From a virus: a stretch of DNA of 64,000 bases. The position numbers and the translations under genes were made by a program. The notes beneath the pieces are model-generated. The model made no database searches. It worked only from the letters and a program-made list of their open reading frames with translations, and was not told where the DNA came from. This document shows, one piece after another, positions 1-62,727 of this stretch; position 1 is the stretch's first letter; each line of letters begins with the position of its first letter. The DNA lies in IMG/VR virus record IMGVR_UViG_3300021964_000026, positions 1-64,000 of that record. One strand, 5' to 3'.

Positions 1-555
1 GATGCCGCTGTTGCTGTGCTGACCAAGGCACAGTCCAACGGGTCGGGTGTCTACATGGACATCAACGGAGGAAAGACCTTCATTGAGCCATCCCAACTCG
101 CCTCCCGTCTCGGCTGGGGCGAGGACTATTGGCTCATGTCTGCCGCCTTTGAGATGCTCCGCATTGCTCCGAAGCGTTCCGTCAACCGAGCCGACCACTT
201 CAACCCGAAGACCGGAAAGCGATACAAGACCCGTCAAGCCTTCTCGGAATTGGTTGCCACCAAGGACCCCACCAAAACCGCTCGCCGTCGCAACTTCTTG
301 AAGCGCATCGCCGCTTTCATCATCACCGAGTCGGGGGCCAACTTCTACAACCACCGCTTCGCTTACTACATCACCGATGAAGCCGCCGAGGACATCCACG
401 CCGCCATTCACCTCAACACCGAGGTGGCCTCATCCAAGGTCATTGGTGGCAAAGCCGCTTCATGGCTGTGGCCCTACGAAGAAGCCAATTGGAAGAGCAA
501 CGGCTCCAAGGCCGAAGCCGCCCCCACCGGTGGCTTCTCCCTCAACGACCTTTGA
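1..555 (+). CDS. Hypothetical protein, 5'-truncated by the window edge
   Basis: Frame is open from base 1 (DAAVAVLTKA...) to TGA 553-555, with C-ending codon bias like the other + strand genes. Confidence 0.8.
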   Translation, partial: DAAVAVLTKAQSNGSGVYMDINGGKTFIEPSQLASRLGWGEDYWLMSAAFEMLRIAPKRSVNRADHFNPKTGKRYKTRQAFSELVATKDPTKTARRRNFLKRIAAFIITESGANFYNHRFAYYITDEAAEDIHAAIHLNTEVASSKVIGGKAASWLWPYEEANWKSNGSKAEAAPTGGFSLNDL

Positions 556-1049: not shown

Positions 1050-2663
1050 ATGAAAGACATGACATTGAACATCGGAAACATAACCATTGACAGCACCCAC
1101 ACCAGCGACGACATCCCGTTGCTTGACATCGGGACCATCAACACCTCAACCTTTGAGGATGTGATGAGCATTGAGGTTCAAGCGAAAATGCGAGCAAGCC
1201 TCCCATCCAACCGAACAGGTGAGCAGTTGCTTGAAGGTGCGAGGGAGTGGCAAGCGCGAGCCTACAACATGTGGCTTGGCCTATCCAAGAAGCGCATGTG
1301 TGTCAAGGCGGCAACAGGTGCAGGTAAGACTCGTCTCGCCACCACCATCATTCACAATTGGTTGACCGACCAAGCGCATGCTGTTCCCAACAAGCGACAG
1401 ACCGTTGTGTTTGTCGTTCCCTCCAAGTCCCTGCTGATACAGACCAAGCAAACCCTTCTCGCTTGGGACTTGAGCATCGGCCTCATCGGTGGCGGCTACA
1501 AGCAGACCTCTCCCAACAAGGATGTCTACATCACCACCTACAACTCCCTTCACAAAGTGTCCTCGCTCAAGCACATCAAGGAAGCGAATGTCCTTCTCGT
1601 TCTTGACGAATGTCATCGGGCAGGTGGAGAGAAAGCACTCGCGAAACTCAAGAAGTTTCAAGGCAATGCTTGTCTTCTCCTTAGCGCAACACCAAACCGT
1701 AGCGATGGCGTTTGTGTCATGCACGAGATGAACACCCACCCCGAAGGCGCACCTTGTAGTGGTGGCGACAGTTGCAAAGCGGGTATTCACTTTGAGTTGT
1801 CCCTCATTGAAGGCATCAAACAATCACGCAACGGTGATGACGCGTTGGACTTTACCTTCCACATCGTGCATTGCACCATGACTCCTGCCGAACAGATTGA
1901 ATACGACGATTTGAGTGAGCGCATCAGCAAAAAATATCACAAGTGCTACAAGATGGTCAGCGAATCCTACGGTGGCAACCCACACAACCTGTTTGACCGA
2001 TGCAATTGGTCGCTTCCACCCAATGTCAAGCGCGAGTTGGCAATCTATCAAGCCCTGTGCAATCAGCGTAAGCGACTGATGAACGACATGGACTCTCGCT
2101 ATGACTACGCACAACAAATCCTCAACCTTTCCATTGGGCGCAAGTCTGCGCTCTTCCATGAAACCATCTTCGGTATTGAACGCCTTCACGGTATGTGCAT
2201 GGAGTTGGGTATCCATCCCCATGTCTACCACAGCGGAGTCAGCGAGTTGCCTCCCGATGTGTTCATCACTTACCCCGAACTCAACAACCCATCATTCATC
2301 CGACGCTTCTCCCAATGGGGCGACGAGTCCGACAAAGAGTTGCGACGATGGATGCGCTCTCCATCCGACGCGCTTCTCACATGCAAGTCGTTGAAGGAGG
2401 GTTTCAATGCACCCGATTTATCAGTCCTCGTAATGATGAGCGGAACAAATCAAGTGCGCTCTCGTGTTCAAACCATTGGTCGTGCTTTCCGAGGCACAGG
2501 CCACAAAGACATCGTGATGTTTGTCTATCCCAGCGGAGACAGCGAGCGACCAAGCGGTGATGAACGCTCACTCTCGCAACTCATTCACGATACAGGCACA
2601 CCCGCCGAGAACATCGCATGGCACACCAACGGGCTGAACCCAGCCCATTTCATAGTCCAATGA
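1050..2663 (+). CDS. Superfamily 2 (DExH, XPB/ResIII-like) helicase
   Basis: Motif I AATGAGKT, motif II DECH, motif III SAT, motif V LKEGFNAP, motif VI QTIGRAFR. Confidence 0.9.
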   Translation: MKDMTLNIGNITIDSTHTSDDIPLLDIGTINTSTFEDVMSIEVQAKMRASLPSNRTGEQLLEGAREWQARAYNMWLGLSKKRMCVKAATGAGKTRLATTIIHNWLTDQAHAVPNKRQTVVFVVPSKSLLIQTKQTLLAWDLSIGLIGGGYKQTSPNKDVYITTYNSLHKVSSLKHIKEANVLLVLDECHRAGGEKALAKLKKFQGNACLLLSATPNRSDGVCVMHEMNTHPEGAPCSGGDSCKAGIHFELSLIEGIKQSRNGDDALDFTFHIVHCTMTPAEQIEYDDLSERISKKYHKCYKMVSESYGGNPHNLFDRCNWSLPPNVKRELAIYQALCNQRKRLMNDMDSRYDYAQQILNLSIGRKSALFHETIFGIERLHGMCMELGIHPHVYHSGVSELPPDVFITYPELNNPSFIRRFSQWGDESDKELRRWMRSPSDALLTCKSLKEGFNAPDLSVLVMMSGTNQVRSRVQTIGRAFRGTGHKDIVMFVYPSGDSERPSGDERSLSQLIHDTGTPAENIAWHTNGLNPAHFIVQ

Positions 2664-2691
2664 GACAAACAAAAAAAACAAGGTGAAAAAT

Positions 2692-3099
2692 ATGAACCAA
2701 GAAAAACAATACCAACCAGCAGGTTGCATGACAGAACGCGAAGCAGTTGAGCGACTTGCTCAACGCCGATACAAGACACGCCAAGAGCGAGGTTTCGCTC
2801 ACCCCCAAGCGCGACCAAGCATTACTTTTGAGAATGCTGAAGGCCACAAGATGAAAGCATGGCGAAGCAAGCACGCTGTCCATGTGCGACGAGTCGGAAC
2901 GAGCGTTTGCGCTACGGTGACTTACAACCTTCCTCGCACACACACCACCGATGTGCCGAAGTCTTCGCCCTTCGCTGGCTGGACTGTCATTGAACTCCGA
3001 AGAGAGTGCCGTTTCCTCGGCCTCAAAGTGAGTGGAAACAAGAGCCAACTCTTCCGCCGCCTCAACAACAACCTCCACCTCCGAGGTGAAGAAGAATGA
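2692..3099 (+). CDS. SAP-domain DNA-binding protein
   Basis: C-terminal WTVIELRRECRFLGLKVSGNKSQLFRRL fits the SAP motif; AGGTGA SD precedes ATG 2692. Confidence 0.75.
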   Translation: MNQEKQYQPAGCMTEREAVERLAQRRYKTRQERGFAHPQARPSITFENAEGHKMKAWRSKHAVHVRRVGTSVCATVTYNLPRTHTTDVPKSSPFAGWTVIELRRECRFLGLKVSGNKSQLFRRLNNNLHLRGEEE

Positions 3100-3593
3100 G
3101 CGATGACATTCGTTCCTTCACCGTTCACCCCATCATCCTCACCCACAGCGGTGCGCGTGTTGAAGAACCACGACGCATGACTCATCGTGAAGTTGTCAAC
3201 TTCATGAACGCAACCAACGAATCAACAGGTGTCGGCGTTCGCTTCGCGCTTACCGGCGAGAGAGCGAAAGTCATTGCTCGTCAACACGACATTGACAATG
3301 GCCTCCAAGTGATGCGCTTCTTCAAAGTCTGCTTCCGACATGAAGGTGCAGACTACACCACCACCATCACCGTTCCCACCAGCGAAAGACTCTACCTCGC
3401 TGGGGGTTGTGCATTCTACATCCCTGCGGGTGCTGACTACCGCGAGATGGAACATGTTCTCAACCTCCGACGGAAAGCCTCGCTCAAACTCGCCATGCAA
3501 TCCATGTTCGCTGAAGAAACGCGCTACGCTGATTGGCTCGTTGAGGAATCAAACCTCATTGTCATTGATGAAGTTGAGGGTGATGACCAATGA
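3096..3593 (+). CDS. Hypothetical protein
   Basis: ATGA overlap with the upstream gene and GAGGTGA SD. Confidence 0.8.
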   Translation: MSDDIRSFTVHPIILTHSGARVEEPRRMTHREVVNFMNATNESTGVGVRFALTGERAKVIARQHDIDNGLQVMRFFKVCFRHEGADYTTTITVPTSERLYLAGGCAFYIPAGADYREMEHVLNLRRKASLKLAMQSMFAEETRYADWLVEESNLIVIDEVEGDDQ

Positions 3594-3778
3594 GCGACAA
3601 GCCAAACATCACCGTCATCACCGATGAGTGCATCTACGAAGAGTTTGGAGATGTCTCAACCCAAGCCGTTCTTCCACGCGACTTTCACAAAGCGTGGAGA
3701 CAGGCACAAAAAGCGCGCAAGATGATGCGCATTCACAGTCCACAGGACACCAAGAAAAACAAGGAGGAAAAACAATGA
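3590..3778 (+). CDS. Small hypothetical protein
   Basis: ATGA overlaps at both ends; GGGTGA SD. Confidence 0.75.
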   Translation: MSDKPNITVITDECIYEEFGDVSTQAVLPRDFHKAWRQAQKARKMMRIHSPQDTKKNKEEKQ

Positions 3779-4194
3779 CCCCGAAACCCAAGACCAAGAA
3801 GCCCCACAACCCGAAGCACCGCCGCGTCTCGTTCCGCAAGGCACGACTGATGCGCGAAGCAGAAGCCAAGATGCCGCGCCTTGATTGCGGTTGCATTGAC
3901 TACAACGACGACGCGTTTGTCGGTTGTGAATCGTGCGGCTACAAGTCATGCCTTGACCACCACCACATTGACAGCACCCCTGCGAATGTGGATGATTGGA
4001 AATGCAAAGAAGGCTACGGATGCAAGTCGCACTACAACTGCACGCGCTGTGGACACATGGGTGAGAACAACCTCGTTCACGAAGTCGGCATGGTCTGTGA
4101 TGGTTGCATGACCAAAGAAGATTGGCGTGTTTGGGACTTGGAGAACCGCAAGTCCAACCCCGACTCATACGACTCACGAGGTGAAGAAGAATGA
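3775..4194 (+). CDS. Cys-rich multi-Zn-finger protein
   Basis: CGC, CESC, CTRC and CDGC motifs; AGGAGG SD and ATGA overlap at 3775. Confidence 0.75.
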   Translation: MTPKPKTKKPHNPKHRRVSFRKARLMREAEAKMPRLDCGCIDYNDDAFVGCESCGYKSCLDHHHIDSTPANVDDWKCKEGYGCKSHYNCTRCGHMGENNLVHEVGMVCDGCMTKEDWRVWDLENRKSNPDSYDSRGEEE

Positions 4195-4544
4195 TTGCAG
4201 ACCGACGCGAACCTCATGAAATGGAAGCGCGCATCTTTGTCGTCATGCACGACAAGTTTCTCAGCGGTTTCGGACATGCCCCTTCTCGCTCATTCCTTGT
4301 TGTCGCATGCCCCACCACCAGCCTCGCTGAACAAGTGGCTTATCATGCGGAGAACCGACGCACCGAGATGAGGCGCGTCAGCATTCGCTACGGCACACTC
4401 AAGAGCGCACTCTCATCACGCCGACTACGCGGTGGCGACCATGCCTCCGTCATCGGTGTTGATTCTCATTGGCTCGGCTGGCCTTTCAACGAGGCCAACG
4501 AGTCGTCAATCAAAACCCAATGGAACAAGGAGGAATCCGAATGA
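4191..4544 (+). CDS. Hypothetical protein
   Basis: ATGA-coupled ORF with GAGGTGA SD. Confidence 0.75.
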   Translation: MIADRREPHEMEARIFVVMHDKFLSGFGHAPSRSFLVVACPTTSLAEQVAYHAENRRTEMRRVSIRYGTLKSALSSRRLRGGDHASVIGVDSHWLGWPFNEANESSIKTQWNKEESE

Positions 4545-5383
4545 AGAAACCATACCAAAAGAAATACCGACCCAACCAGCCCGAAGACCTGCACAGCAAC
4601 GGAAAAGTCAACCGACTCGCTTTCGTTTCGCGCATCGTCAACACCGAGAACAAACACCTGTCCGTCAAGGAAGCGTGGTCATTGACCAACAAGCGCGACG
4701 CCAAAGACATCGGACTCACCCAAACACGATTCGGTGCGGCACTCTCCGCCGCCGTTCGTAGTGGCCGACTTGACAAGACGCGAATCCAAGAGACTCCCAC
4801 GAAGACTGTTGTTGTGTTCCACCCAATCAACATGAAGCCGATGGGTCTTGACATTCCTGTTCCTCTCTACACGCGGGACACCACCAACGACAACGATGTG
4901 TTCACCTTTGACGACGACGACGACCTCTCTACCTTTGATGACTACGAACAGGCAGAAGCGGCAGTCAACAGCAAGCCCGATGCTGTCAAGGTTGCCGAGC
5001 AGGTCATCGCTGGACTCCCTGCCGATGGCCCAACTGTCTCCGACACTCCCCCCACTTTGGATGCGTTCTCCTTCAACGAAGACGAACCGAAGGAAGACTT
5101 TGTGGACTACATGGAAAGGCGGAAGAAAGAAAACGATGAGGCAGAAGAGGCGCGTCTCGCTGGACTCTCTTCTACCATCCAACACCACTTCACAGCGGAA
5201 CAGTTGCTTGACACACTCAACGCATTGAACCCCAACCTCCATGATGATGTTCTTGTCGCAGTCTACGAAGCACTCGGCAAGCCTGTCTATGATGGACTCG
5301 GCTCGCTTCTTGAACCACTACCGCGCAAGACTGAACACATGTCTTGGGCTTTCATCAACGGAAACTTGGTGGTGAAGCAATGA
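4541..5383 (+). CDS. Hypothetical protein (basic, possibly wHTH N-terminus; acidic middle)
   Basis: AGGAGG SD and ATGA overlap at 4541; D/E-rich linker. Confidence 0.75.
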   Translation: MKKPYQKKYRPNQPEDLHSNGKVNRLAFVSRIVNTENKHLSVKEAWSLTNKRDAKDIGLTQTRFGAALSAAVRSGRLDKTRIQETPTKTVVVFHPINMKPMGLDIPVPLYTRDTTNDNDVFTFDDDDDLSTFDDYEQAEAAVNSKPDAVKVAEQVIAGLPADGPTVSDTPPTLDAFSFNEDEPKEDFVDYMERRKKENDEAEEARLAGLSSTIQHHFTAEQLLDTLNALNPNLHDDVLVAVYEALGKPVYDGLGSLLEPLPRKTEHMSWAFINGNLVVKQ

Positions 5384-5643
5384 AGCCAACACCAATCCCC
5401 GAAGACGGCTGGACTGACGCTGACATCGGACGCGAAGTGGTTCTCAAGATGCCTCACGGCACGCTTGTTCAAGACCGCATCGTGTTCATCAACACTCACG
5501 ACGGTGGACAATACATCGGTCCCGCGACAGAACTCGGTGCGCTTGCCGCACGCATGAGTTATGTCATTCCCATTCTCCTTGAGCATGATGCTTTCATCAT
5601 GAGCATGGACGACGACACAGAAAAACAAGGTGATGAACAATGA
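5380..5643 (+). CDS. Hypothetical protein
   Basis: GGTGGTGA SD and ATGA overlap. Confidence 0.7.
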   Translation: MKPTPIPEDGWTDADIGREVVLKMPHGTLVQDRIVFINTHDGGQYIGPATELGALAARMSYVIPILLEHDAFIMSMDDDTEKQGDEQ

Positions 5644-6044
5644 CCCCCGAAGAAGAACAATGGAGAAACAATACCCTGCAACGCATTGCTGTTGATATGC
5701 TGACGCGCATTGACAGCGGCGCACGAATGACCAGCGACGGCATCGCTCGCTACATGATGGACTTGGTTGCCAACTACGGCTACACCTCTTACGAAGAAGT
5801 GGCGAAGCGCGTGCTTGCAATCTTTCATTCAAACCCCGACAACTTCTGTGGTGATACCCCACTACGGTATCACAACCTCACGCTTGTGTGGCGAGAGCAA
5901 TTCCCCGAATCCTACGAAGCACATCAACAACGACTACGCGCACAGCAGGGCTTGGACAAGGTGAACAAGACCGTTGTTGACATGATGATGGATGACATGA
6001 GTCGCGGCTTCGTCGGCTTTGAACCAACGGAGGGAAGCGAATGA
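5640..6044 (+). CDS. Hypothetical protein
   Basis: AGGTGA SD and ATGA overlap. Confidence 0.75.
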   Translation: MTPEEEQWRNNTLQRIAVDMLTRIDSGARMTSDGIARYMMDLVANYGYTSYEEVAKRVLAIFHSNPDNFCGDTPLRYHNLTLVWREQFPESYEAHQQRLRAQQGLDKVNKTVVDMMMDDMSRGFVGFEPTEGSE

Positions 6045-6595
6045 CCTTCAACCAAGACAACTTCAACCTGCTCATCAGCGACAAGCGCACCGTCATCTCG
6101 TTCACCAACAACGACGCTGGAAACGGTAAGCGCAACATCATCATGGATGCAATCATCCGACCACACTCGTTCCTTCTCAACGAGAAGAAGACGGGCATCA
6201 TCAATCCGCACCGAAGCATGTCCAACATTCCTGTTGAATATGTCCGCGCTTGTCCACGATGTCATGATGATTGGTTCCCTGTTCAGCAAACCTACACGAG
6301 TGGAAAAGCAGACTACACGACTTACACCTGCGCCAACAAGTGCGGTGTTTCAATCTGCGATGACACCTTCAATCGTTTCAGTCCGCGCGGTATCAAAGTT
6401 GATAAACCCTCAACGACAGGAGAAACTATGGCGCGCGCCACAGAAACATTCACACTTGACATCGGCGACATCACAATTGATGTTGGCGACATCACAATTG
6501 ACTTGGGCGGAGTTGACTCCGCGCAAGACGAACCCACCATCGTGAACACCGATGTTCTTGACATCGGAGACATCACCATCGGAGGTGAGGAATGA
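6041..6595 (+). CDS. Zn-ribbon protein with C-terminal LDIGDITID repeats
   Basis: CPRC...CANKC; tail reads LDIGDITIDVGDITIDLGG...LDIGDITIGG. Confidence 0.8.
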   Translation: MTFNQDNFNLLISDKRTVISFTNNDAGNGKRNIIMDAIIRPHSFLLNEKKTGIINPHRSMSNIPVEYVRACPRCHDDWFPVQQTYTSGKADYTTYTCANKCGVSICDDTFNRFSPRGIKVDKPSTTGETMARATETFTLDIGDITIDVGDITIDLGGVDSAQDEPTIVNTDVLDIGDITIGGEE

Positions 6596-6780
6596 TGCGT
6601 CGCTTTGAAACAGCAACCAATTCAAAAGACGACGCGTTCTTTTACATTCACATCGTTCACGACGAAGAAAAAGAACAACAACAACAACTCAATGACTTCA
6701 AGAAAGTCATTGAGATATATTGCGAGAACTTGAAGTCTCGCACATCACAGTCCAACGGACACAAAACAAAGGAGGCCTAA
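6592..6780 (+). CDS. Small hypothetical protein
   Basis: GGAGGTGA SD and ATGA overlap. Confidence 0.6.
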   Translation: MMRRFETATNSKDDAFFYIHIVHDEEKEQQQQLNDFKKVIEIYCENLKSRTSQSNGHKTKEA

Positions 6781-6782
6781 AA

Positions 6783-8825
6783 ATGGAAAATGAAACCCCC
6801 AACGGAGCCAGCACACGGACTGCCATCATCGGTAGTTTGGTAGAAAACAAAACGACGGAGTCGGTGGTGTGGGTGCAAGCAACGCACCAAGAAGCACCAC
6901 TCGCCATCCCTGCACCATGCGTCGCCGCGAAGGTAGACTGCGGAGAGATGACCGTGTTCTGTTTACAGAACGCGGAATCACACGGCACACTTGTTGAAGT
7001 TGCCACCTTCCCGCAATACACCAACTACGACACGCAAGGCAACCGCGCCCTTCAAGACGCGGTTGACATGTGGGTTGAGTTCGGCGAGACGCTACCAACT
7101 GCACCACCATCCCTTGACATCGGTGAGGTCAGCCTTGACCTTGACCTTGACATCGGGACCATTGACATCGGTGGAGACGACAGCACACCCAACTTTGGAG
7201 ACGCGCTGAACATTGAACTCGCCGACCATGTGTTGGCCGAGAACGAGACGACGGAAGAGGCCGCTGTAAAGAAGGCCAAGAAGAAGTTGTCCGCGATGGA
7301 GAAGGCGAAGAAGGCTCGCGAAGAACGGTTCGCCGAGTCCGCCAAAATCAAGGACAACCTCAACTCCGACATCAGCAAGGCGATGGCTGACGGAAAGCGA
7401 CACGAAGACTTCGGTCCTTGGAACTTCCGCACCAAGACCTACGACATGGTTGCGCGCTCAACCGACCCCATCACAGGTGAGACTTCCTACCACGAAGTCT
7501 CATCCGAGAAGGGCGACACTCGCGTTCGTGCCATCTTCAACCCAACGCTGGCGACACAGGACAACCCACTTGGTCATTGTTTGAACCGAGCCATCGGTCC
7601 CAACTTCGTCCCTGTTGAACACCCCGATGTCTTCGTCCCCATCATTCAAACGGTGCGCGGAATCAACGAATCCAACGGCTGTGTCTACGAACTCAAGGAG
7701 GGCGACAAGGTTGCTTCGCTTGTGTCGGGTCAAGAACTCATCACTTGGGACGCGTTCTCTTTCAACAAGGGTGCGCGTGCCATGATTAACCTTGACTTGA
7801 CGGGCTACTCAACCAAGACTCGCAAGGAATCGGCAAAGGGACTGTCTGCCTTCGGGTATGTCAACCTGTCCGCGAACCGAATCAGCGACGCGCTTGTTGA
7901 GGAACAGGGTGGACACCGTGTTGGTGTCTCCATCATCAACTCCCACGACGGTAAGTCCGCGCTTCAAGCCTTCATGTCTGTGCTTCGCACCTACTGTGGC
8001 AACCTCGCCGCACGCGGTGGTGTTCAAGCCCTGCTCATGGCTGGCGACCGCACGAAGATTCGCCACATGGAAGGTGTTGTCTCGGAGTTTGACCCCGAAC
8101 AGTTCGCGAGCCAACTCGGTGCGGCCATGCTTGAGTCGCACAAGAACATGGTTGCGATGCACATTCTGCGCCACCTCCCCATTGAAGCCAATGTGTTTGA
8201 CAAGGTGATGACTTCCTTTGCTTCCCACCGCTTGGTTGCACAACCATCCCTCACCATTGAGGCTGGCGATGTTGACCAAATCCCACGAGACGAGAAGGGC
8301 AACCTCATCGTCAACGCGGCGATGATGACGAAGGATGCTGTCAAGGTCGGACACGGCCACGCTTACAACGCCATGATGCAGGGTTGGATGAACCCCGACC
8401 TTGACTATGTGGCGATGGGTGAGAACGGCTCCGAACTTGACCGCGAGTCAGTCGGCACGATGTTCCACGCCGCGCAAGCATTGACGGGAACCATCACGCA
8501 CAACCCAATCTTCTCCGATGGCAAGCGCGTTCTTCACGGACAGAAGCAGGGCATTGAGTTGCTGATGAAGAAGTCCGACACCGCCGTGAACCTCCTTGAA
8601 GAGATTGCCTTCGGTGCTGTTGATGCCTACGCCGCACACACAGGCCAGCCTGTGGATGACCTCTCGGCGATGGGCCAATGGGTCGCTGACAACCCCGACC
8701 AATTCAAGGTTCCTTACTCCAAGACGAAGAACGGAAAGAAAGTGATGACCCCCATCACCGAAATCCCCGCGTTCATGGACACTTGGAACTACAAGGTCAA
8801 GACCGTCACGGTCAACAAGGCTTGA
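6783..8825 (+). CDS. DUF932 (TIGR03299-like) phage/plasmid protein with N-terminal extension
   Basis: IINSHDGKSAL...LRTYCGN matches the family's NSHDG...R..C.N signature; GGAGG SD precedes ATG 6783. Confidence 0.75.
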   Translation: MENETPNGASTRTAIIGSLVENKTTESVVWVQATHQEAPLAIPAPCVAAKVDCGEMTVFCLQNAESHGTLVEVATFPQYTNYDTQGNRALQDAVDMWVEFGETLPTAPPSLDIGEVSLDLDLDIGTIDIGGDDSTPNFGDALNIELADHVLAENETTEEAAVKKAKKKLSAMEKAKKAREERFAESAKIKDNLNSDISKAMADGKRHEDFGPWNFRTKTYDMVARSTDPITGETSYHEVSSEKGDTRVRAIFNPTLATQDNPLGHCLNRAIGPNFVPVEHPDVFVPIIQTVRGINESNGCVYELKEGDKVASLVSGQELITWDAFSFNKGARAMINLDLTGYSTKTRKESAKGLSAFGYVNLSANRISDALVEEQGGHRVGVSIINSHDGKSALQAFMSVLRTYCGNLAARGGVQALLMAGDRTKIRHMEGVVSEFDPEQFASQLGAAMLESHKNMVAMHILRHLPIEANVFDKVMTSFASHRLVAQPSLTIEAGDVDQIPRDEKGNLIVNAAMMTKDAVKVGHGHAYNAMMQGWMNPDLDYVAMGENGSELDRESVGTMFHAAQALTGTITHNPIFSDGKRVLHGQKQGIELLMKKSDTAVNLLEEIAFGAVDAYAAHTGQPVDDLSAMGQWVADNPDQFKVPYSKTKNGKKVMTPITEIPAFMDTWNYKVKTVTVNKA

Positions 8826-23855: not shown

Positions 23856-24010
23856 ACGAAAATGAAGTAAGACACATCAAAGGAAAAAAGAGCGCGCGAC
23901 TTTGCGGTTCCAAAGGAAACTACGAACCCGTTGGCACGAACACGGAGTTGCCGGTTTGCCACGCTTGTCAAACCATCCACTTCACATTGACGGGGGAGAT
24001 GATTCAATGA
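23852..24010 (+). CDS. Small Zn-finger protein
   Basis: H...LCG...CHAC; ATGA overlaps. Confidence 0.7.
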   Translation: MNENEVRHIKGKKSARLCGSKGNYEPVGTNTELPVCHACQTIHFTLTGEMIQ

Positions 24011-24768
24011 GCCTTGCTCAAGCAACTTTCAACAATGATTCACTTTGGGCTTTCATGACAGGATTCGGAGAGGGCGTCAACGACCTTCGTTGCACCCTCG
24101 CTGACCTGCGACTCAAAGCATCCGTGGATACGGCGACGCATTTCTTCACCAAGACCATCGGCATTCACGGAGTGGAAGACGACTACCGAGCAGGTGTTAT
24201 CTACATCCCCGATGTCCACAAGGTCGGCGCGTTTCTCAAAGCGTGCGATGAAGACTACACCACCATCCGACATGTTGGCAACACGCTGACATTGAAGAAC
24301 GGCAACAACGAGTTCAGCACACCGACCTCCGACTACATCATGTCGCACACCACCGTGGACCGAGCCGAGACTGCCATCAGTTATGCCGCACAGAACAAGT
24401 GGGCTAAACTTGGCCGCGCGGATTTGGAATGTCATGGGACGCTGACCGTTGGTGCGACTCGCGGAATGACCGCACTCACCAAAGTCATCGGAAAGGATGC
24501 ACCCGTCAAGGTTCGTGTGGCTGATGGCGAGATGACCATTGCCGCTGGAACAAACCGTGGCGCGCGTATGACACGACAATGCGATGTTGACACCGAATAC
24601 AACGGGACATGTGAAACAGTCTTCGGACCTCACTTCCCGAAGTTGTTGAACCTCATGCCATCCGGACCCGCCATCTTTCACATGGGAAACAAAAGCGCGC
24701 TTGTTATTGTTCACGCTGAACTTGCATGCACGCTTGTTCTCAAACACCAAGAGGGGGTAGACCAATGA
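24007..24768 (+). CDS. Divergent PCNA-like sliding clamp
   Basis: 253 aa with a two-domain alternating alpha/beta pattern; located between RFC and PolB. Confidence 0.55.
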   Translation: MSLAQATFNNDSLWAFMTGFGEGVNDLRCTLADLRLKASVDTATHFFTKTIGIHGVEDDYRAGVIYIPDVHKVGAFLKACDEDYTTIRHVGNTLTLKNGNNEFSTPTSDYIMSHTTVDRAETAISYAAQNKWAKLGRADLECHGTLTVGATRGMTALTKVIGKDAPVKVRVADGEMTIAAGTNRGARMTRQCDVDTEYNGTCETVFGPHFPKLLNLMPSGPAIFHMGNKSALVIVHAELACTLVLKHQEGVDQ

Positions 24769-24884: not shown

Positions 24885-27232
24885 TTGCTGACGCTATCTA
24901 CCACGATGACCGACCACCAACACTCTACACCCGATACCGTGATGATAAGGGCGCGCTGATTGAAAACCGCGTTGACGACTACAAACCTCACATGTTCATC
25001 CCTACATCAACACCGGAGTTTCGCATCAACCAAATGCTTCGCTCATTCCCTACCGCTGAATTGTTGAAGGACAAGACCTACGAGGGGCTTGACGGTGCTA
25101 CGCTTTGGCGTGTTGAAACGGACAACCCCTACGACATCGCCGCCATGCGAAACATGTTCAGCCGTTCCTACGAAGGAGACATGCGCTTCGTTGACCAATA
25201 CTTGGTTGAGAACATCACCGAGATGCCGAAATGGAAGCCGCGCAAATGGTGGTATGACATTGAGTGCAACACCGGCGACGACAATTTCACGACCGTCATC
25301 GCCGTCATTGATTCCGACATGGACCTTCCCGTTGTTTTCGCATGGGCTGATGAGCGAACCAATTGTGCTTACGAGACTCCACCCGAAAGCGTCACTTGGC
25401 GACGCAAGGTTCGTGATGAAGAATACAGGTTGCGTCTTTTTGATTCGGAGAAAGCAATATATGATGAGTTCATTCATTTTCTTCACCATCGCAACCCCGA
25501 CATGATGATTGCTCACGCGGGAACTTTCTTTGACATACCTCACATGATTGAACGCCTTGACCACATCTACGGTCATGGTGGTTCACACAGGTTGAGTCCA
25601 CTCGGCATCATTCGCTACCCCAAGAAGGGTGAGCGATACCGCTTTGACGACCAACCCATCGCTGGCCGTTGGCAATTTGATACCGCGGCCCCTGCGCAAT
25701 CCGGCACAGGATTTGAGCGCGTATGGAAAGACAGCGGTGGTGGACAACTACCCAACCGTAAGTTGAATACTATCGCTGAAACGCTGGGCCTCGGCTCCAA
25801 ACTCACCGAAGAGATTGAGGGCATGGATGTCCACAATGGGTGGTATGAGTATTGGTCGGAGTTCGTTGACTACTGTTTGCTTGACACCGTTCTCCTTCGT
25901 GGGATTGATGAAGCGCGAAATGTCACGGACTTCTTTGTTGAAATGGTGCGTCTTTGTGGCGTCTCCATTCAATCATCAACCAATGTGTCAAACTTCATGC
26001 GCGGTTTGCTTGGACGCAAGACCCACTTGATTGCACCTTCTCGCATCAATGTGCAGAAGCCCGACATTCAAGGAGCGGAGTTCATCATCAAAGACAACGG
26101 CCTCTACGAAGGTGTTGCTGTTGTTGACTACAAGGGACTGTATCCCTCACTCATGACCGGCTTCAACTTGTGCTGGACAACGAAGCGAGATGGCCCCGGC
26201 CCCGGCATTCTTGAGATGGAGAACGGAACCTTTTGGGACCAAGAATCCAAAGGCATCCTCCCCCAAGTTGTTGACGACCTGTTTGAATACCGAGCATTGT
26301 GCAAACAACGCATGCGCGAAGCAGAAACCAAAGAGATTCGTGCCGCTTGGAACACCACACAGGCCGCAGTCAAGCGCGTCATGGCGAGTCTCTACGGGGC
26401 AACCGCGAGCGTCGGGTTCGGCTGGGCCGACCTTGACATCGCCGAAACCATCCTCTCCGAAGGACGACGATGCATTGCTTTGCTTGACACGGTGGCGACC
26501 AACATGGGCTACAATGTTCTCTACGGTTTCACCGACTCCGCTTTCATCCAAGTGCCGCTTGAGGAAGCCGAAGCATTGGCCGCGCGTATCACAGATGTCG
26601 TGCAGTCTACGACGGGCAACGAGAAGTTGATTGCTGAACTTGAGGCTTACATGCCGTATTGGTTGCTGGCTGGCAAGAACCGCTACGCGGGAAAGGTCAC
26701 TTATCCCACCGAGGATGCTGGCAAAATGAAGACGGCGAACTTCATGAAAGGTAGCAGTCTTGCACCCATCAGCAAACAAGCCGAAGGGACGGTGCTTGAC
26801 CTCGTGTGCGACGGTGCGTCCGAAGCCGATGTGCGAGCCGCCGTTCTTGACATGGCTCTCCCTGTGCGACGAGGTGAAATGGACTTGAAGACCGTGACGC
26901 AATCAACAAGAATCAGCGCGAATCCGGAAGACTACAAAACACTCTCCGGTGCTTCAAAAGCCGCGCACTACTACAACCAACACATGGCGGATGGCGACCC
27001 GTTTGTATCGGGCGACTCCGTTCAATGGACCTATGTTTCAGCCGTTCCGAATGGTTTGCCAGCAACCAAAGTAGTTGCATACCGTGAACCTGCTGAACTT
27101 GAGGACTTTGAATTGGATGCCAAAACCATTTTGAACAAATCAATTGAGAAGAAAATCTCCGGCATTTTTGAGGTCTTGGGTTGGGACCTTGAAGCCGCAA
27201 TCGGAACCCCCCGACCCGCAACATATTGGTGA
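24881..27232 (+). CDS. polB: Family B DNA polymerase with 3'-5' exonuclease
   Basis: ExoI YDIEC, ExoII FFDIP, ExoIII YCLLD; pol motifs DYKGLYPS, KRVMASLYG, YGFTDS, KNRY. Confidence 0.95.
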   Translation: MIADAIYHDDRPPTLYTRYRDDKGALIENRVDDYKPHMFIPTSTPEFRINQMLRSFPTAELLKDKTYEGLDGATLWRVETDNPYDIAAMRNMFSRSYEGDMRFVDQYLVENITEMPKWKPRKWWYDIECNTGDDNFTTVIAVIDSDMDLPVVFAWADERTNCAYETPPESVTWRRKVRDEEYRLRLFDSEKAIYDEFIHFLHHRNPDMMIAHAGTFFDIPHMIERLDHIYGHGGSHRLSPLGIIRYPKKGERYRFDDQPIAGRWQFDTAAPAQSGTGFERVWKDSGGGQLPNRKLNTIAETLGLGSKLTEEIEGMDVHNGWYEYWSEFVDYCLLDTVLLRGIDEARNVTDFFVEMVRLCGVSIQSSTNVSNFMRGLLGRKTHLIAPSRINVQKPDIQGAEFIIKDNGLYEGVAVVDYKGLYPSLMTGFNLCWTTKRDGPGPGILEMENGTFWDQESKGILPQVVDDLFEYRALCKQRMREAETKEIRAAWNTTQAAVKRVMASLYGATASVGFGWADLDIAETILSEGRRCIALLDTVATNMGYNVLYGFTDSAFIQVPLEEAEALAARITDVVQSTTGNEKLIAELEAYMPYWLLAGKNRYAGKVTYPTEDAGKMKTANFMKGSSLAPISKQAEGTVLDLVCDGASEADVRAAVLDMALPVRRGEMDLKTVTQSTRISANPEDYKTLSGASKAAHYYNQHMADGDPFVSGDSVQWTYVSAVPNGLPATKVVAYREPAELEDFELDAKTILNKSIEKKISGIFEVLGWDLEAAIGTPRPATYW

Positions 27233-28944: not shown

Positions 28945-29074
28945 GTTGTGTGGAAAGAAAAGCGGCGGTCTTCGTCATACGAGATATACCGCATGCTCAT
29001 CGTGCATTGACAAAGTGCTTGAGTTTGCCATTACTGCTGAAATGAGGTTTGAAAATGAATCCACTTCACTTTGA
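28931..29074 (+). CDS. Small Zn-finger protein
   Basis: CELC...CSSC; GGAGG SD. Confidence 0.65.
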   Translation: MKACELCGKKSGGLRHTRYTACSSCIDKVLEFAITAEMRFENESTSL

Positions 29075-30638
29075 TTTTCCGAAAGAAGTTGGCCTGTTCC
29101 GAAAAATCATTCACGATAACGCGGAGTTTGAACGGTATTGGTCATCGCTACAAAACTCACAATGCGCCTACATGTCAGTCTACGGTTTCCGAGCCGTAAA
29201 GCCAAATGGTCGCCGCGCGGAATACAACACCGCTATCATGAAGCACTTCGTGCTGGACTTTGACAAGAAGTATCGCAAAGGAAGCAACATGGTTGAGGTT
29301 GAGGGCGACGAGGTTGTTGAACAGGTCCGCCGCCTCCAACGGTATCTCCTTGACGAGAACATCAACCACGGCGTTTGGTTCAGCGGCAATGGATTTCACA
29401 TTTGGATTTCACTTGAGAAGACGCACCTCCCATCCAGCGGAACGCAGGTGTCGCACATCAAGGCGGCTGGAAAGAAGGTCATCAATCAATGGAAGAAGGA
29501 CATGGAACTCTACTGCATGGACCCGACTGTGCCATTTGATACTGCGCGTATGATTCGTGTCCCTAACTCCTACAACGCCAAGCAACATGTGCTTCGTTGG
29601 AGCATCCCACTTGAAAGTAATGAGTTGCTTACTTTGTCATGGGATGAGATTTGTGAGTTGGCTCAAAAGCCACGCAACACCGCTTACTTCTACGGTGAGA
29701 AAGGAGTCTACCTTCCTGTCAAGCAAGTGCGAGAAAGCCAATTCAAGGTGTCGGGTGAACCCGTCAACTTTGATACTGTCAAAATGGGTAGCATCAAAAT
29801 CCTCCCATGCCTCATTGAAGCGGCATGTCAAGTGGGAAGCAATCCGCCGCATATCAGCCGCGCGAGTTTGGCTATCTACCTTGCATCGCGCTTGCGAAAC
29901 TTCCTACCCGTTCAACGAACGACTGTCCAAATGCGCGAAGCGCATATCCTCACACTCCACGATTTCATCAAGACCCTTCAATGGGCTGACTACGACCCCA
30001 GCACAACCGAGTATCAACTGCGCTCCATCGTTGATGGTGGCTACACGGAACGATGCGAAAGCCTCATCGGGAAGGGGCTTTGCATCGGGCGTTGTCAACT
30101 GTGGGATAAAACCGGAGAACACCAAGACACTACGGAAACAATTCAACTCACACCTCAAGAAGTCAATGAAACCTATGCTTTAGCGAAACGAGAAGTTGAA
30201 AAACATAGTGAGCGCGTAGGAGAATACTCTCATAACAATGTGTCTTCAACATTTATTGGGTTAAAAGCAGAAGCCGCCGTTAGTTTTTATCTATCGCGAT
30301 TCTTTGATGTGCAAAAAGGCAAAGGCGATTTACAAATCAACGGATTGCCGATTGAGGTCAAAACCGTGACTGAAGAGCAATGGGACAAGTTAGGAAGAAT
30401 GATACCCCCTCGTCAACTCAACAAATATGTAGCCAACAAAGCAATTGTTGTTTGGGCTACTGTTGATTCTTACGACCACACGGATTGCAATGTCAATCTC
30501 AAAGGATGGAATAACGCTTACGAAATCAAAGCAAAAGGCGCGCCTATCAAAACAAGTTGCGACAACATTTGGTTGAAGAACGAAAGAGACATGAAGGAAA
30601 TTGCAACAATTTATTCTGCTTTGAAGGTGATGCAATGA
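29055..30638 (+). CDS. Archaeo-eukaryotic primase (PriS-PriL fusion) with extra C-terminal PD-(D/E)XK-like domain
   Basis: VLDFD, SGNGFH, RMIRVPNS (PriS); LPCL..., PPHISR, C...LCIGRC (PriL Fe-S domain); GLKAE...GDL...IEVKT tail. Confidence 0.85.
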   Translation: MNPLHFDFPKEVGLFRKIIHDNAEFERYWSSLQNSQCAYMSVYGFRAVKPNGRRAEYNTAIMKHFVLDFDKKYRKGSNMVEVEGDEVVEQVRRLQRYLLDENINHGVWFSGNGFHIWISLEKTHLPSSGTQVSHIKAAGKKVINQWKKDMELYCMDPTVPFDTARMIRVPNSYNAKQHVLRWSIPLESNELLTLSWDEICELAQKPRNTAYFYGEKGVYLPVKQVRESQFKVSGEPVNFDTVKMGSIKILPCLIEAACQVGSNPPHISRASLAIYLASRLRNFLPVQRTTVQMREAHILTLHDFIKTLQWADYDPSTTEYQLRSIVDGGYTERCESLIGKGLCIGRCQLWDKTGEHQDTTETIQLTPQEVNETYALAKREVEKHSERVGEYSHNNVSSTFIGLKAEAAVSFYLSRFFDVQKGKGDLQINGLPIEVKTVTEEQWDKLGRMIPPRQLNKYVANKAIVVWATVDSYDHTDCNVNLKGWNNAYEIKAKGAPIKTSCDNIWLKNERDMKEIATIYSALKVMQ

Positions 30639-30874
30639 AAATCAGCGACCAATACATGAAGGTTGGTAGGAAAATAAACAGAAGCCGCAAATCAATTTAT
30701 CACATTCTTCAACGGAACACCGAAGAACGCGACACCTGTTTGTGTGGCGCAATTATTTTTGACACCAACGGTTGGAACATTATTCTTGATGATGATGATG
30801 ATGAACGAAGAGTGTCGCTCAATTGTGAGAAAGCATACAAAAGTGTAGTTCGCGCTAAGAGGTGGAAGCAATGA
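30635..30874 (+). CDS. Small AT-rich hypothetical protein
   Basis: AGGTGA SD and ATGA overlaps; H...CLCG. Confidence 0.65.
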   Translation: MKISDQYMKVGRKINRSRKSIYHILQRNTEERDTCLCGAIIFDTNGWNIILDDDDDERRVSLNCEKAYKSVVRAKRWKQ

Positions 30875-31560
30875 AGCCACCTCTCATCATTGACACCAAT
30901 GAACGCGGTTCACTCGTGTCAGCACTTGAGCGACGCGCAAAATCACGCTCTCCCCGAATTGATGTCTTGCGGCAGAACCTTGTCAACGGCGACTACAAGT
31001 GTGGAGATTGGTTGATTGAAGCCAAGAGCATTGACGACCTCTTCACATCCATGAGAAGCGGACACCTTATGCGACAACTTGACAACATGGATGCAAACGA
31101 TGGCAACTACGGGTTGGTGATTTGGGGTGAGATTGGTGGCTACATTCACCGAGCGCGTGAGCGTGGTTCCACCATCACCGCCAGCCAAGCCCTCAAACAA
31201 ATGACAGGATTCCTCGGTAGAGTTGTAGCCGACTTTGGTTGCCTCATCTACCGCGCACCTAACGCAAGTGAAGCGGCGGCGTTCATGGTCGCCCTGCACG
31301 AGAAAACCTACAAGAAAGCGAGCCGTCATGGTGCGCAAGCCGTTCGGCGCGTATCCACAAACGATGTTCGCAAAGACATGCTCCTTACGATTCCCGGTAT
31401 CGGTCCGGAAATGGTGGAGGCAATCATTGACGCGTGCGGCTCAATTGAAGAAGCCGCATGTGGTGATTGCTTGCGTGATGTTCCCCGCATGGGGAAGGTG
31501 TTGCGCAATCGTGTTGTTGAAGTATTGACCAGCGAAGAAGAAGTTCGCTTTGAAAGGTGA
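30871..31560 (+). CDS. ERCC4/XPF-family structure-specific nuclease with HhH motifs
   Basis: IIDTNE, GDY, IEAKSIDDL (ERKxxxD variant), IPGIGP and VPRMGK HhH motifs. Confidence 0.88.
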   Translation: MKPPLIIDTNERGSLVSALERRAKSRSPRIDVLRQNLVNGDYKCGDWLIEAKSIDDLFTSMRSGHLMRQLDNMDANDGNYGLVIWGEIGGYIHRARERGSTITASQALKQMTGFLGRVVADFGCLIYRAPNASEAAAFMVALHEKTYKKASRHGAQAVRRVSTNDVRKDMLLTIPGIGPEMVEAIIDACGSIEEAACGDCLRDVPRMGKVLRNRVVEVLTSEEEVRFER

Positions 31561-33733: not shown

Positions 33734-35230
33734 ATGACAGAAGAAAGGAAAACAGGAAGAGAAGCCCAAATGAGCAACATTCGTGCCGCTGTGCAAGTGG
33801 CCGAAACCGTGAGGTCAACGCTTGGCCCTGCGGGTATGGACAAAATGCTCGTAGACGAACGCGGAGAAAGCATCGTGACCAACGACGGTATCACGATTCT
33901 CCGAGAACTTGACACCGCACATCCCGGTGCGCAGATGATGGTTCAAGCGAGTCAAACGCAAGAAGAAGTGTGCAAAGACGGAACGACCAGCGTGGTTGTG
34001 CTGGCTGGACAAATGCTGGCCTTGAGCGAGGGATTGCTCATGCGAGGCATTCACCCGCAAACAATTGTGCGCGCATACAACAAAGCATCCAAAATCGCCC
34101 TTGAAAACATGCCGCTTCCCGAAACAAACATCGCTGTTGATGTGGTGGCCGCAACTGCTTTGCGCGGCAAAGCGTCCGAGTCTGCTCTTGGATTCGCCGC
34201 TCAACTCGTTGAAAACGCCGCGTTGACTGTTAATGGCAACCTTGACCGTGTTCGCACACTCACTCAAGCGGGTGGCGACATGAGTGATTCTTACATCCAC
34301 AGCGGTCTTGTTCTCAACAAGACCTTCGTGAATCCCGACTTTACCGGGAAAGAAAATCCGCGCATTCTTCTCCTTGATGGAGGAATTGACGGCTTCAATT
34401 ACGAGGATGTCCAAATGCAAATCAGCGACCCAGCCCAACTTGATGCAATCCGAAAACAAGAGATGCAGATTTTGAGTAGCGTGTCCCACGCTCTTTCCGA
34501 GATGGCTGACATTGTGATTGTCCGAGATGGTGTTCACGAGGCCGTTGCCAAATACCTTGACGCACAGAACATCGGTGTTGTCAGTCGTGTCCAGCAAAGC
34601 GACATGGACAGCATCGCTCGCATCACAGGTATCCCCGTCCACCACCGAATCACCGAAGTTGCTGATGACTACGAAGCGCGTATTGAAGGTTCAATCAAAT
34701 CCATTCGCATTGGCGACCTTGACTATGTGTCGGTTGAAGCGAAGGAAAGCGACACCATCACCATGATTGTTCGGGGCGCAACCCGACAAACGCTGGATGA
34801 ATACGAGCGTGCGTTTGACGACGCTCTTGGTGTGGCTTGTCTCTACTTGAATGACAAGCGACTCTACCCCGGTGGTGGTGCTGTTCTTTCTAACTTGGCG
34901 ATGACTGTGCGTAGTCATGCTACACATGAACGACAGTCTTCTGCTCGTGAGCGTATGTGCATGGAAGCCTTTGCAGATTCCCTTGAAATCATCCCTGCCG
35001 CTATTGCCAGCAACGCTGGTATGGACGCGCTTGATGTGGTGATGGAGTTGCGTTCGGTGACGAACAACTACGGGCTTTACATTGACTTTGCAGGGGAAGG
35101 CTCAATCGGTGATATGGTCAAGCATAATGTGTGGGAACCTGCCGCGCTTGTTGAACAAATCATCAAGTCGGCTACCGAGGTTGCTTGCTCCATCCTTCGT
35201 ATTGATGACATTATCGCGAGGCGTGGTTAA
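33734..35230 (+). CDS. ths: Group II chaperonin (thermosome subunit)
   Basis: STLGPAGMDKML, TNDGITIL, DGTTS, PGGG, ILRIDDII. Confidence 0.95.
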   Translation: MTEERKTGREAQMSNIRAAVQVAETVRSTLGPAGMDKMLVDERGESIVTNDGITILRELDTAHPGAQMMVQASQTQEEVCKDGTTSVVVLAGQMLALSEGLLMRGIHPQTIVRAYNKASKIALENMPLPETNIAVDVVAATALRGKASESALGFAAQLVENAALTVNGNLDRVRTLTQAGGDMSDSYIHSGLVLNKTFVNPDFTGKENPRILLLDGGIDGFNYEDVQMQISDPAQLDAIRKQEMQILSSVSHALSEMADIVIVRDGVHEAVAKYLDAQNIGVVSRVQQSDMDSIARITGIPVHHRITEVADDYEARIEGSIKSIRIGDLDYVSVEAKESDTITMIVRGATRQTLDEYERAFDDALGVACLYLNDKRLYPGGGAVLSNLAMTVRSHATHERQSSARERMCMEAFADSLEIIPAAIASNAGMDALDVVMELRSVTNNYGLYIDFAGEGSIGDMVKHNVWEPAALVEQIIKSATEVACSILRIDDIIARRG

Positions 35231-37921: not shown

Positions 37922-37922
37922 T

Positions 37923-38129
37923 TTATTCAACTCCATGCTGTTTGAACTTGGGTTTTGTCAATCTTGACTCGCGCCAAAGTCGCGAGCAAAGTGGACACTC
38001 CCAAATGAGGACACGCGTATCACGGTCATTAACATATCGCCCTTCAAGGCGTTGCGCGAGAATCGTCTCGTGACAACCGGGACACGATTGACTTAAGCGC
38101 GCCTTTAGTTTTCCCAAAACTTCCACCAC
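37923..38129 (-). CDS. Zn-ribbon protein (start uncertain)
   Basis: CPGC...WECPLC. Confidence 0.7.
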   Translation of the reverse strand: MVEVLGKLKARLSQSCPGCHETILAQRLEGRYVNDRDTRVLIWECPLCSRLWRESRLTKPKFKQHGVE

Positions 38130-62086: not shown

Positions 62087-62236
62087 TCAAGCACCACACC
62101 CGCCTTTATCCATGCAGTCGGAACACTTGTTCTTCCCGCAGTTGTCGCAACACTTGCTCGCGCGGCAACCACTTTTGCCGCACTCGTCGCATCCATCACC
62201 TTTCATAATCGTCCAAGCATCGTTCATTGGGTTCAT
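62087..62236 (-). CDS. 49-aa Cys-rich metallothionein-like peptide with leader motif (not in the ORF track)
   Basis: MNPMNDAWTIMKGDGCDECGKSGCRASKCCDNCGKNKCSDCMDKGGCGA (9 Cys); AGGTGA SD. Confidence 0.7.
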   Translation of the reverse strand: MNPMNDAWTIMKGDGCDECGKSGCRASKCCDNCGKNKCSDCMDKGGCGA

Positions 62237-62237
62237 T

Positions 62238-62717: not shown

Positions 62718-62727
62718 TCTGTTCACC

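Follow-up and report, generated by a model that had tools for sequence, protein, structure and literature searches.

In this study, we showed that a short peptide motif, which reads LD(I/V)G in the virus analysed here, is uniform within a genome, different between lineages, conserved in position and selected as protein. The window is the whole stretch of 64,000 nucleotides analysed, namely the first 64 kb of the 102,931-bp IMG/VR virus record IMGVR_UViG_3300021964_000026 (estimated 98% complete; its genome is called G000), and positions are those of the window unless marked as genome positions. At least six unrelated proteins carry the motif: the protein of the first open reading frame (ORF), an SF2 helicase, a zinc-ribbon (Zn-ribbon) protein, a DUF932 protein, and two proteins of 517 and 2310 amino acids (aa).

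Motif copies and their coding

The genome has a rightward arm (~1–35 kb) with helicases, a family-B polymerase (PolB), a primase-like protein, an ERCC4/Hef-like nuclease and a chaperonin, and a leftward arm (~35–102 kb) with the portal, the large terminase (TerL) and proteins of 5109, 2015 and 2310 aa. The preliminary description had placed the motif in the helicase, the Zn-ribbon protein and the DUF932 protein. All of its peptides were found in frame at the positions it gave, and CTTGACATCGGGACCAT is the same at 1122–1138 and 7146–7162; its list of proteins was incomplete, since a scan of all proteins added three further carriers. The peptide pattern gave nine six-frame matches in the window versus 0.82 in shuffled sequences, seven of them inside the helicase, Zn-ribbon and DUF932 genes. 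The carriers, their motif copies and one possible further member are as follows.

1–555, plus strand: first ORF of the rightward arm, C-terminal part; the ORF is split by the record ends
Genome 102360–102929, outside the window: first ORF, N-terminal part with motif copies APTLEVDIDAPTLEVGSVGGFDLD; motif APTLEVDIDAPTLEVGSVGG at genome 102,741–102,810
1050–2663, plus strand: SF2 helicase (ResIII/DEAD) with the motif at its extreme N-terminus; Pfam ResIII 1.4e-22, DEAD 1e-14; PHROG DNA helicase
1065–1145, plus strand: helicase motif copies LNIGNITID (1065–1091) and LDIGTINT (1122–1145), reading MKDMTLNIGNITID...PLLDIGTINT
4469–5383: 304-aa protein; a repeat search found the degenerate acidic-hydrophobic tandem pair VFTFDDDDD / LSTFDDYE at 4887–4940 (plus strand)
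6041–6595, plus strand: Zn-ribbon protein of 184 aa, with a folded domain (residues 1–115) and an acidic tail predicted to be disordered (126–184)
6455–6586, plus strand: Zn-ribbon tail array LDIGDITI-DVGDITI-DLGG, then a final LDIGDITIGG, on a 21-nt tandem unit; the tail (6455–6590) holds ...TLDIGDITIDVGDITIDLGG...VLDIGDITIGGEE up to the stop
6780–8825, plus strand: DUF932 protein, in the order N-terminal domain of ~104 aa, motif linker, Lys-rich helix, DUF932 domain
7113–7175, plus strand: DUF932 linker copies LDIGEV, SLDLDL, LDIGT and IDIGG (...SLDIGEVSLDLDLDIGTIDIGGDD), flanked by conserved DMWxEFGE and (V/T)PNFGDAL
Genome 86119–87672, minus strand: 517-aa protein directly upstream of the large terminase, with LDVGNITM and LDVGDISVDGDD
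Genome 94996–101928, minus strand: 2310-aa protein, first gene of the leftward arm, with LDVGDINIGEEKPT twice and then LDVGS

The DUF932 assignment (PF06067) reached 26.4 bits against a Pfam cutoff of 23 by a partial match to profile positions 66–168 of 227, and a literature search on DUF932 returned nothing on its function. Pfam, PHROGs and NCBIfam gave no match for the Zn-ribbon, 517-aa, 2310-aa and first-ORF proteins or for most of their neighbours, and no DxDGD-type RNA-polymerase motif was found in the giant proteins.

In nearly all versions of the motif, two hydrophobic residues (positions i and i+2) flank a single residue, which is mostly Asp and otherwise Glu, Asn, Thr or Val. The core (LDIG, LDVG, IDWG, IDFG, LDFG, IEFG, VVFG, LNFG, FDM, FVF, FTF, ISI and LTLTL are examples) is often followed by Gly or an acidic residue and often preceded by Pro or Thr. 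The motif sites lie in acidic surroundings at extreme N-termini, at extreme C-termini and in linkers, with 2–4 tandem copies per site. Disorder of the Zn-ribbon tail is predicted from an AlphaFold2 model (15 sequences), in which the confidence score pLDDT was ~90 for residues 1–115 and ~33 for 126–184; the other motif sites are unalignable acidic linkers between conserved blocks. Judged from the sequences, this anatomy is that of a putative strand-forming short linear motif used with avidity, as the preliminary description proposed.

The repeat is a peptide-level motif and not a DNA site. The same description had preferred a docking peptide to a DNA site, and this choice was borne out, since the copies lie solely in frame and synonymous sites are randomised between distant copies. 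The DNA word CTTGACATCGG is present in exactly five copies in the 102,931-bp genome, 5/5 on the plus strand and all in the L-D-I-G frame; with one mismatch allowed, the window holds 11 sites versus 1.6 expected. The leftward-arm copies are encoded as (C/T)T(T/G) GAT GT(T/C) GG(N) on the opposite strand, and the third base of the Gly codon varies among copies. Between the arms, the same codon was used at identical residues with a frequency of 0.37 versus 0.36 expected in G000 and 0.47 versus 0.46 in G003, and two VSFTF copies of the relative L012 differ at 4/5 codons, TCT versus AGT among them.

A DNA or RNA element that chances to overlap coding sequence (protein-binding site, promoter or origin iteron) could account for five identical copies of CTTGACATCGG, in which CTT-GAC-ATC has a probability of ~0.13 per copy from codon usage, and the word contains TTGACA. 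The five identical copies do indicate some DNA-level kinship among those of the rightward arm. However, the whole genome has no copy of the word in another frame, on the opposite strand or in non-coding DNA, which indicates that the element is selected as protein and that new copies arise by local duplication. Furthermore, the late-arm copies have different DNA (GATGTTGG), the DNA of relatives is wholly different while the peptide logic is kept, and TTGACA has no promoter meaning in archaea, the probable host domain. Such an element is thus extremely improbable. TTGACA was also considered as a promoter and rejected, since no plausible −10 was seen by eye at the right spacing and the host is probably archaeal.

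Versions of the motif in related viruses

Relatives were gathered from IMG/VR and marine metagenome contigs with the DUF932 and 2310-aa proteins as handles, together with further Zn-ribbon homologues. In ~12 related lineages, the folded parts align well and the LD(I/V)G positions hold another short motif. Within a genome, the remaining carrier proteins repeat the motif of that lineage, so that six orthologue sets were switched together, with positions conserved. The motif is therefore kept in homologues with regard to place (the same positions in the same proteins) and not with regard to letters: literal LDIGDI is present only in close relatives and is replaced elsewhere in all carriers together. 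This joint replacement strengthens the reading as a code. The versions are listed below, G001 being record IMGVR_UViG_3300018426_000075.

G001: DUF932 protein SPDIDWGDD twice; Zn-ribbon tail VIDWGE..EIDWG at the stop; helicase MEIDFS..TIDWGD..EIDWGAE
G001: first ORF AAVDFGD twice; 2310-aa protein TIDFGEPTIDFGD and ..PEVDFSQ at the stop; 517-aa protein PEIDFGD..PEIEFGN and PEIDFAG
L045: DM(N/S)IDFG in the first ORF, the 2310-aa protein (twice) and the 517-aa protein (twice)
G002, L048, L062, L063: NTMP(D/E)(L/I) in all six proteins
G003: I(D/E)FDM or VFDMT
G004, L046: FDM(T/S)GA
L032, L033: E(E/M)F(V/T/S)F(N/I)
G005, L070, L071: (S/T)FTF(A/V)
L054: LM(T/V)LDFG
L068, L075, L078: LP(S/T)I(S/T)I(D/E) and LPVIVIGE
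L074, L077: P(P/A)(I/V)VFG
L038, L057: DDMxIDFG
L050, L052: PI(D/E)FG
Five versions, each seen in one protein: PFNF, TL(T/V)FGG, VLNFG, IEFG(N/S)EE and LTLTLD

In the first-ORF orthologues, the aligned acidic segment is the motif of the own genome (AAVDFGDAPSDAAVDFGDF in G001, AGIDFSMT in G003, DMSIDFGD in L045, TTMPALGTTMPT in L048 and DDEFSFN in L033). The helicase N-termini behave likewise, reading MEIDFSMT..TIDWGD..EIDWGAE in G001, MNEIIFDMNVEEEIEFDMNE in G003, MNTMPVLDDNTMPDL in L048 and EEEFVFTN..EMIFTF in L033, and the Zn-ribbon tails of at least 20 orthologues have lineage-specific motifs beyond a conserved anchor, IPS..SMARA(T/A)E. The first-ORF protein also ends in a conserved acidic-Leu tail in all lineages (window 520–555; GGFSLNDL, NMSLNDLMNL, NLDIGSLDTL, GLDLNDLKKL and SLDLGSLDSL, each up to the stop), which is not version-specific.

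The uniformity within genomes was evaluated with words of four residues (4-mers). When 4-mers were counted without a preset pattern, the motif was the top multi-protein word in 4/6 genomes (G000, G001, G002 and G004). Non-homologous motif regions had 1.11 informative 4-mers in common within a genome versus 0.13 between genomes, and 0/2000 label permutations reached 1.11; near-duplicate genomes were removed for this test, and fragments that probably come from one virus were treated as separate, a conservative choice. In marine metagenome contigs fetched after the idea had been formed, the DUF932 linker and the Zn-ribbon tail shared 2.44 4-mers versus 0.18 (0/10000 permutations).

The comparison of G000 with G001 revealed a mosaic. 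Most proteins are 80–99% identical (TerL 99%, portal 97%, membrane/GTPase operon 91–98%), and low identity was found for the 2310-aa protein (33%), the 517-aa protein (35%), the first ORF (34–48%), the helicase (61%) and the 304-aa protein (only 49%). The mosaicism is sharp, with the diverged proteins replaced by distant variants. The Zn-ribbon and DUF932 proteins of G001, otherwise 84–97% identical to those of G000, carry the G001 version; in the DUF932 protein, identity is 97–98% after residue 140, 69% in the N-domain and 43% in the linker. The motif-bearing segments thus appear as the diverged, version-matched parts of the mosaic, a pattern that would be expected if a genome needs a matched set. 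The orthologue of the 304-aa protein in G001 has VFTFDEDDDVFTFDDDEEEPIVDF, and this protein is a possible weaker member of the motif set.

A second shared motif, (MNPM)xxAWxLLK followed by A, G or N, was observed on at least seven late proteins of the minus strand (genome 35357–87672; within the window 35357–36394, 36404–37936 and 62087–62747). Unlike the LDIG-type motif, AWxLLK is conserved across lineages. The 517-aa protein, which ends in ASWDSLLKGLNIRG, holds both.

A proposed docking code and its candidate readers

With moderate confidence, we propose that the motif serves as a docking code that is multivalent and private to each genome; its reader would be a co-evolving viral partner, or the copies would pair with each other. 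Each copy would form a short β-strand that adds onto a partner, tandem copies would give avidity, and the tagged proteins would be tethered into one assembly, in which the rightward arm's DNA-handling enzymes would be linked to the 2310-aa protein and to the protein next to the packaging motor. The joint change of version across all carriers makes a co-evolving reader encoded by the virus, or else mutual pairing of the copies, most likely. Tandem duplication may give rise to new versions, which would then spread by selection for a match. A common docking code had already been suggested in the preliminary description, and its peptide nature, in-frame copies and conserved positions are consistent with our data; the hubs named there were not supported, and nothing was found for a host reader of the SAMP/Urm1 type.

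A host hub would be a ubiquitin-like SAMP/Urm1 protein, PCNA or RPA that reads the motif in the manner of SUMO-interacting motifs (SIM) or PIP-type motifs. Some versions are SIM-like (LPVIVIGE, PTIVIEEEEE, ITID), alternating hydrophobic residues with acidic flanks suit β-strand addition, and the archaeal character of the genome (thermosome-type chaperonin, Hef-like nuclease, PriS-like primase) also speaks for such a hub. However, G000 and G001 differ in version although their packaging and membrane-operon proteins are 95–99% identical, so that they probably have a similar host; this points to a virus-encoded reader or mutual pairing. Moreover, a host hub leaves the matching of all copies within a genome unexplained, and the pattern Q-x-x-h-x-x-aromatic-aromatic is not present. 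PolB is without the motif and carries a conserved C-terminal sequence of another kind, KKISGIF(E/D)VLGWD(L/I)E (27140–27232), which makes a clamp-type reader unlikely. We thus consider a host hub quite unlikely; for a ubiquitin-like or clamp reader of the host to be possible, it would have to be tolerant and the matching would need another cause. The PolB tail KKISGIF(E/D)VLGW could be a clamp-binding peptide of its own, distinct from the LDIG-type code.

The matched mosaic argues against conserved viral hubs as well as against a host reader. Between a genome with NTMP and one with FDMTGA, the replication module is 87–99% identical (PolB 91%, clamp-like protein 89%, chaperonin 94%), and among the proteins scanned, neither Pfam nor PHROGs revealed a viral β-grasp protein. 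The chaperonin, PolB, the clamp and SAMP/Urm1 make poor candidates for the reader. The 253-aa protein upstream of PolB (24007–24768) has the length of a sliding clamp and an alternating strand/helix pattern; its model was poor (pLDDT 46) and a profile search of the PDB gave no match.

Our best guess for the reader is a domain of the 2310-aa protein, with the DUF932 N-domain second. The tree of the 2310-aa protein follows the motif versions, and a local-divergence scan found residues ~483–540 and 695–830 more diverged in the NTMP lineage, a signal too noisy to draw on. No domain was recognisable in this protein, and its Zn-rich part had no usable match in the ESM Atlas. The DUF932 N-domain is 96% identical where the version is shared and 62–68% identical where it differs (rest of the protein, 92–97%). 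Its divergence shows no excess between the NTMP and FDMT lineages, and it lies in one patch with two motif sites, so its signal may be hitch-hiking; a hidden Markov model of this domain found no copy in other proteins, and the ESM Atlas gave no usable match. The 134-aa protein (5640–6044) was rejected as a reader, since its identity is no more than 61% even with a shared version (L056). For the Zn-ribbon protein as a candidate single-stranded DNA-binding protein (SSB), the domain model gave no convincing match to a solved fold and no clear one to an OB fold (best Foldseek E value 0.29, with weak SSB, RPA70N and Whirly rows; best VIA Z 4.7).

Several points weigh against the proposed code. Since related lineages have versions in common, fewer independent events underlie the result than the permutation counts suggest. 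A single ~750-bp patch (6440–7190) holds the DUF932 N-domain and linker together with the Zn-ribbon tail, with ~600 bp between tail and linker; the tail and the linker can therefore switch version by a single recombination and are not independent. Codon sharing within the same arm exceeds expectation (0.57 versus 0.36 in G000, 0.80 versus 0.41 in G004), indicating that recent duplication or gene conversion adds to the uniformity within a genome. The versions are also very diverse (IDFG, NTMPDL, SFTF), a diversity that a single structured pocket would have to follow, and a generic tolerant reader is possible. Finally, no reader was recognised among the viral proteins scanned with Pfam and PHROGs.

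Some of these observations favour concerted evolution, in which the segments would be generic acidic spacers or DNA-mimicking tails without a specific reader and would have come to resemble each other through gene conversion, block recombination and tandem duplication. Tandem DNA units, perfect or nearly so, are present in the Zn-ribbon gene (21 nt × 2.9, 6450–6509), the 2310-aa gene (42 nt × 2.2, perfect) and the first ORF (27 nt × 2), and the codon excess within arms fits these units; the contiguity of the Zn-ribbon tail with the DUF932 linker points the same way. There is also a precedent in Borg elements of archaea, in which fast-evolving amino-acid tandem repeats create disordered regions (bioRxiv 10.1101/2022.05.18.492195). 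However, the copies of opposite arms, inverted and up to 90 kb apart, match as peptides with random synonymous sites, the extended prefix DM(N/S)IDFG is kept in three proteins with differing codons, and positions are conserved across the ~12 lineages. The alternating hydrophobic pattern is kept too, which a pure spacer would not need. This explanation is therefore considered unlikely.

The motif might also mark cleavage sites of a viral or host protease with co-evolving specificity, so that carriers would be cut at linkers and trimmed at their ends. The sites are indeed located between domains or near termini, and AWxLLK (then A/G/N) on the late proteins, one of which (517 aa) has both motifs, resembles a propeptide or targeting signal. 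However, some copies begin at Met1 (MNTMPVL.., MEIDFS..) and others form the very end of the protein (..PEIDWG, ..PEVDFSQ, ..IDFGEDSQ), so that a cut would take off next to nothing; arrays of 2–4 tandem copies are typical of avidity and not of cleavage, and no protease was found among the fast-diverging genes. A role in cleavage is very unlikely.

If the docking code exists, co-circulating strains that are otherwise 80–99% identical might have incompatible versions, with only cognate parts assembling, by analogy with immunity or incompatibility groups. This extension would include matching variants of the 2310-aa, 517-aa and first-ORF proteins and of the helicase, with reading either through β-strands paired from copy to copy or through strand complementation of a viral receptor; taken together, we regard it as tentative and rather doubtful. 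If true, incompatible versions would be an undescribed viral way to keep machinery private during co-infection. Textbooks describe shared docking peptides for a small number of hubs (clamps, SSB tails and SUMO, for example). In the papers searched, no code was found that is uniform across six or more unrelated proteins of one virus and yet replaced wholesale between close relatives. The motif defines a functional group of otherwise unannotated proteins, including the 2310-aa protein without a known domain, in abundant uncultured marine archaeal viruses, and the predicted contacts can be tested with recombinant proteins without culture of the host. It offers a clean case for the joint change of a many-site motif and its reader and, should a reader be identified, would supply sets of orthogonal peptide-partner pairs of natural origin.

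Genome setting and comparison with known systems

The host is probably archaeal, as indicated by a thermosome-type chaperonin, a Hef-like nuclease and a PriS-like match. The chaperonin (33734–35230) matched thermosome models best (E value 3e-114; 382.6 bits, under the curated cut-off of 450), with GroEL models far lower, and the Hef/XPF-like ERCC4+HhH nuclease plus the weak PriS-like match lie at 30862–31560 and 29049–30638. PolB is nearest to haloarchaeal tailed viruses (21–23% identity), and the predicted proteome is not halophilic (median isoelectric point 5.8). Relatives are present in TARA Oceans and other marine contigs, and GenBank phages gave no megablast match to the motif region. Magroviruses of Marine Group II archaea (PMC5434244) served as a comparison set for the affinity of PolB, a chaperonin in the replication cluster and a marine genome of ~100 kb. 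The features of the present virus appear to fit magroviruses, a statement of context and not a claimed affiliation. The label "early" for the carrier genes is taken from gene order only.

The first ORF is split at the record ends near a run of eight Thr codons (ACC/ACA), and the frame is not continuous across the junction of the two ends; a circular or permuted assembly was probably broken close to this repeat. Gene junctions of the form CGAGGTGAAGAAGAATGA are stereotyped (3082–3099, 4177–4194, 5626–5643), and G-E-E-E or G-D-(D/E)-Q is the ending of many genes, whose stop overlaps the start of the following gene. For the PolB matches L015, L016 and L017 (PolB of G002, G004 and G005), the genome search reported 1–3 in-frame TGA codons; these are probably alignment overhangs, the ORF calls there being intact.

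Several known systems resemble the motif in part. In clamp binding of the T4 type (gp43, gp33 and gp55 on gp45) and by PIP boxes, short hydrophobic/acidic peptides on the floppy ends of unrelated proteins likewise bind one hub and link replication with late functions. The tails SLDFLFG and SLFDMFDF of the T4 and RB69 polymerases resemble the IDFG and FDM versions. However, the PIP consensus Q-x-x-(L/I/M)-x-x-(F/Y/W)-(F/Y/W) is absent from every version and PolB has no motif; clamp motifs are also stable, while the present motif occurs in several copies and is hypervariable from lineage to lineage, and the clamp-like protein is 89% identical across two versions. Acidic SSB tails (DDDIPF of E. 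coli SSB; the T7 gp2.5 and gp4 tails on gp5) are similarly acidic and disordered with few essential hydrophobic residues, and their tail logic is common to replisome proteins. Those tails are single-copy, strictly C-terminal and conserved; the present motif is N-terminal, internal or C-terminal, tandem and genome-private.

SIM, the analogy of the preliminary description, likewise have an alternating or consecutive I/V/L core with acidic flanks and are often tandem. Their consensus, (V/I/L)-x-(V/I/L)-(V/I/L) or (V/I/L)-(V/I/L)-x-(V/I/L) with an acidic flank, fits some versions (ITID, VIVIGE, IVIEEEE) and not IDWG, NTMPDL or FDMTG; the Gly behind the core does not agree with it either, and co-variation within a genome is not a property of SIM. 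In docking of nonribosomal peptide and polyketide synthases (NRPS/PKS) by short linear motifs and β-hairpins, an acidic C-terminal peptide strand is placed on the N-terminal β-hairpin of the partner with a co-varying code, and only matching partners dock. The pairs there are one-to-one with a recognisable receptor, whereas here one version is common to six or more proteins and no receptor domain was recognised.

RHIM and the fungal and bacterial amyloid motifs (BASS, HET-s type) are short motifs common to unrelated partners, at the C-end of one and the N-end of another, and are closer within sets than between them. The hydrophobic-x-hydrophobic-Gly of the present motif recalls I/V-Q-I/V-G of RHIM, and like-with-like pairing would explain the matching. 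Those motifs are ~20 aa long with a G/N/Q pattern and a Q core; here the units have 4–9 aa with Asp/Glu in the middle, and the acidic context is unfavourable for stacking. The capsid-targeting sequences of T4 also address unrelated proteins to one viral structure by a short peptide. However, they are single N-terminal copies removed by the prohead protease, a role that AWxLLK fits better than the tandem motif, which stands at any position of the chain. Borg repeats are in frame, fast-evolving and build disorder in archaeal elements, and have not been reported as one version across a fixed protein set. Unlike all systems compared, the present motif unites many carriers with multi-copy sites anywhere in the chain and with a version that is exchanged wholesale from one close relative to the next.

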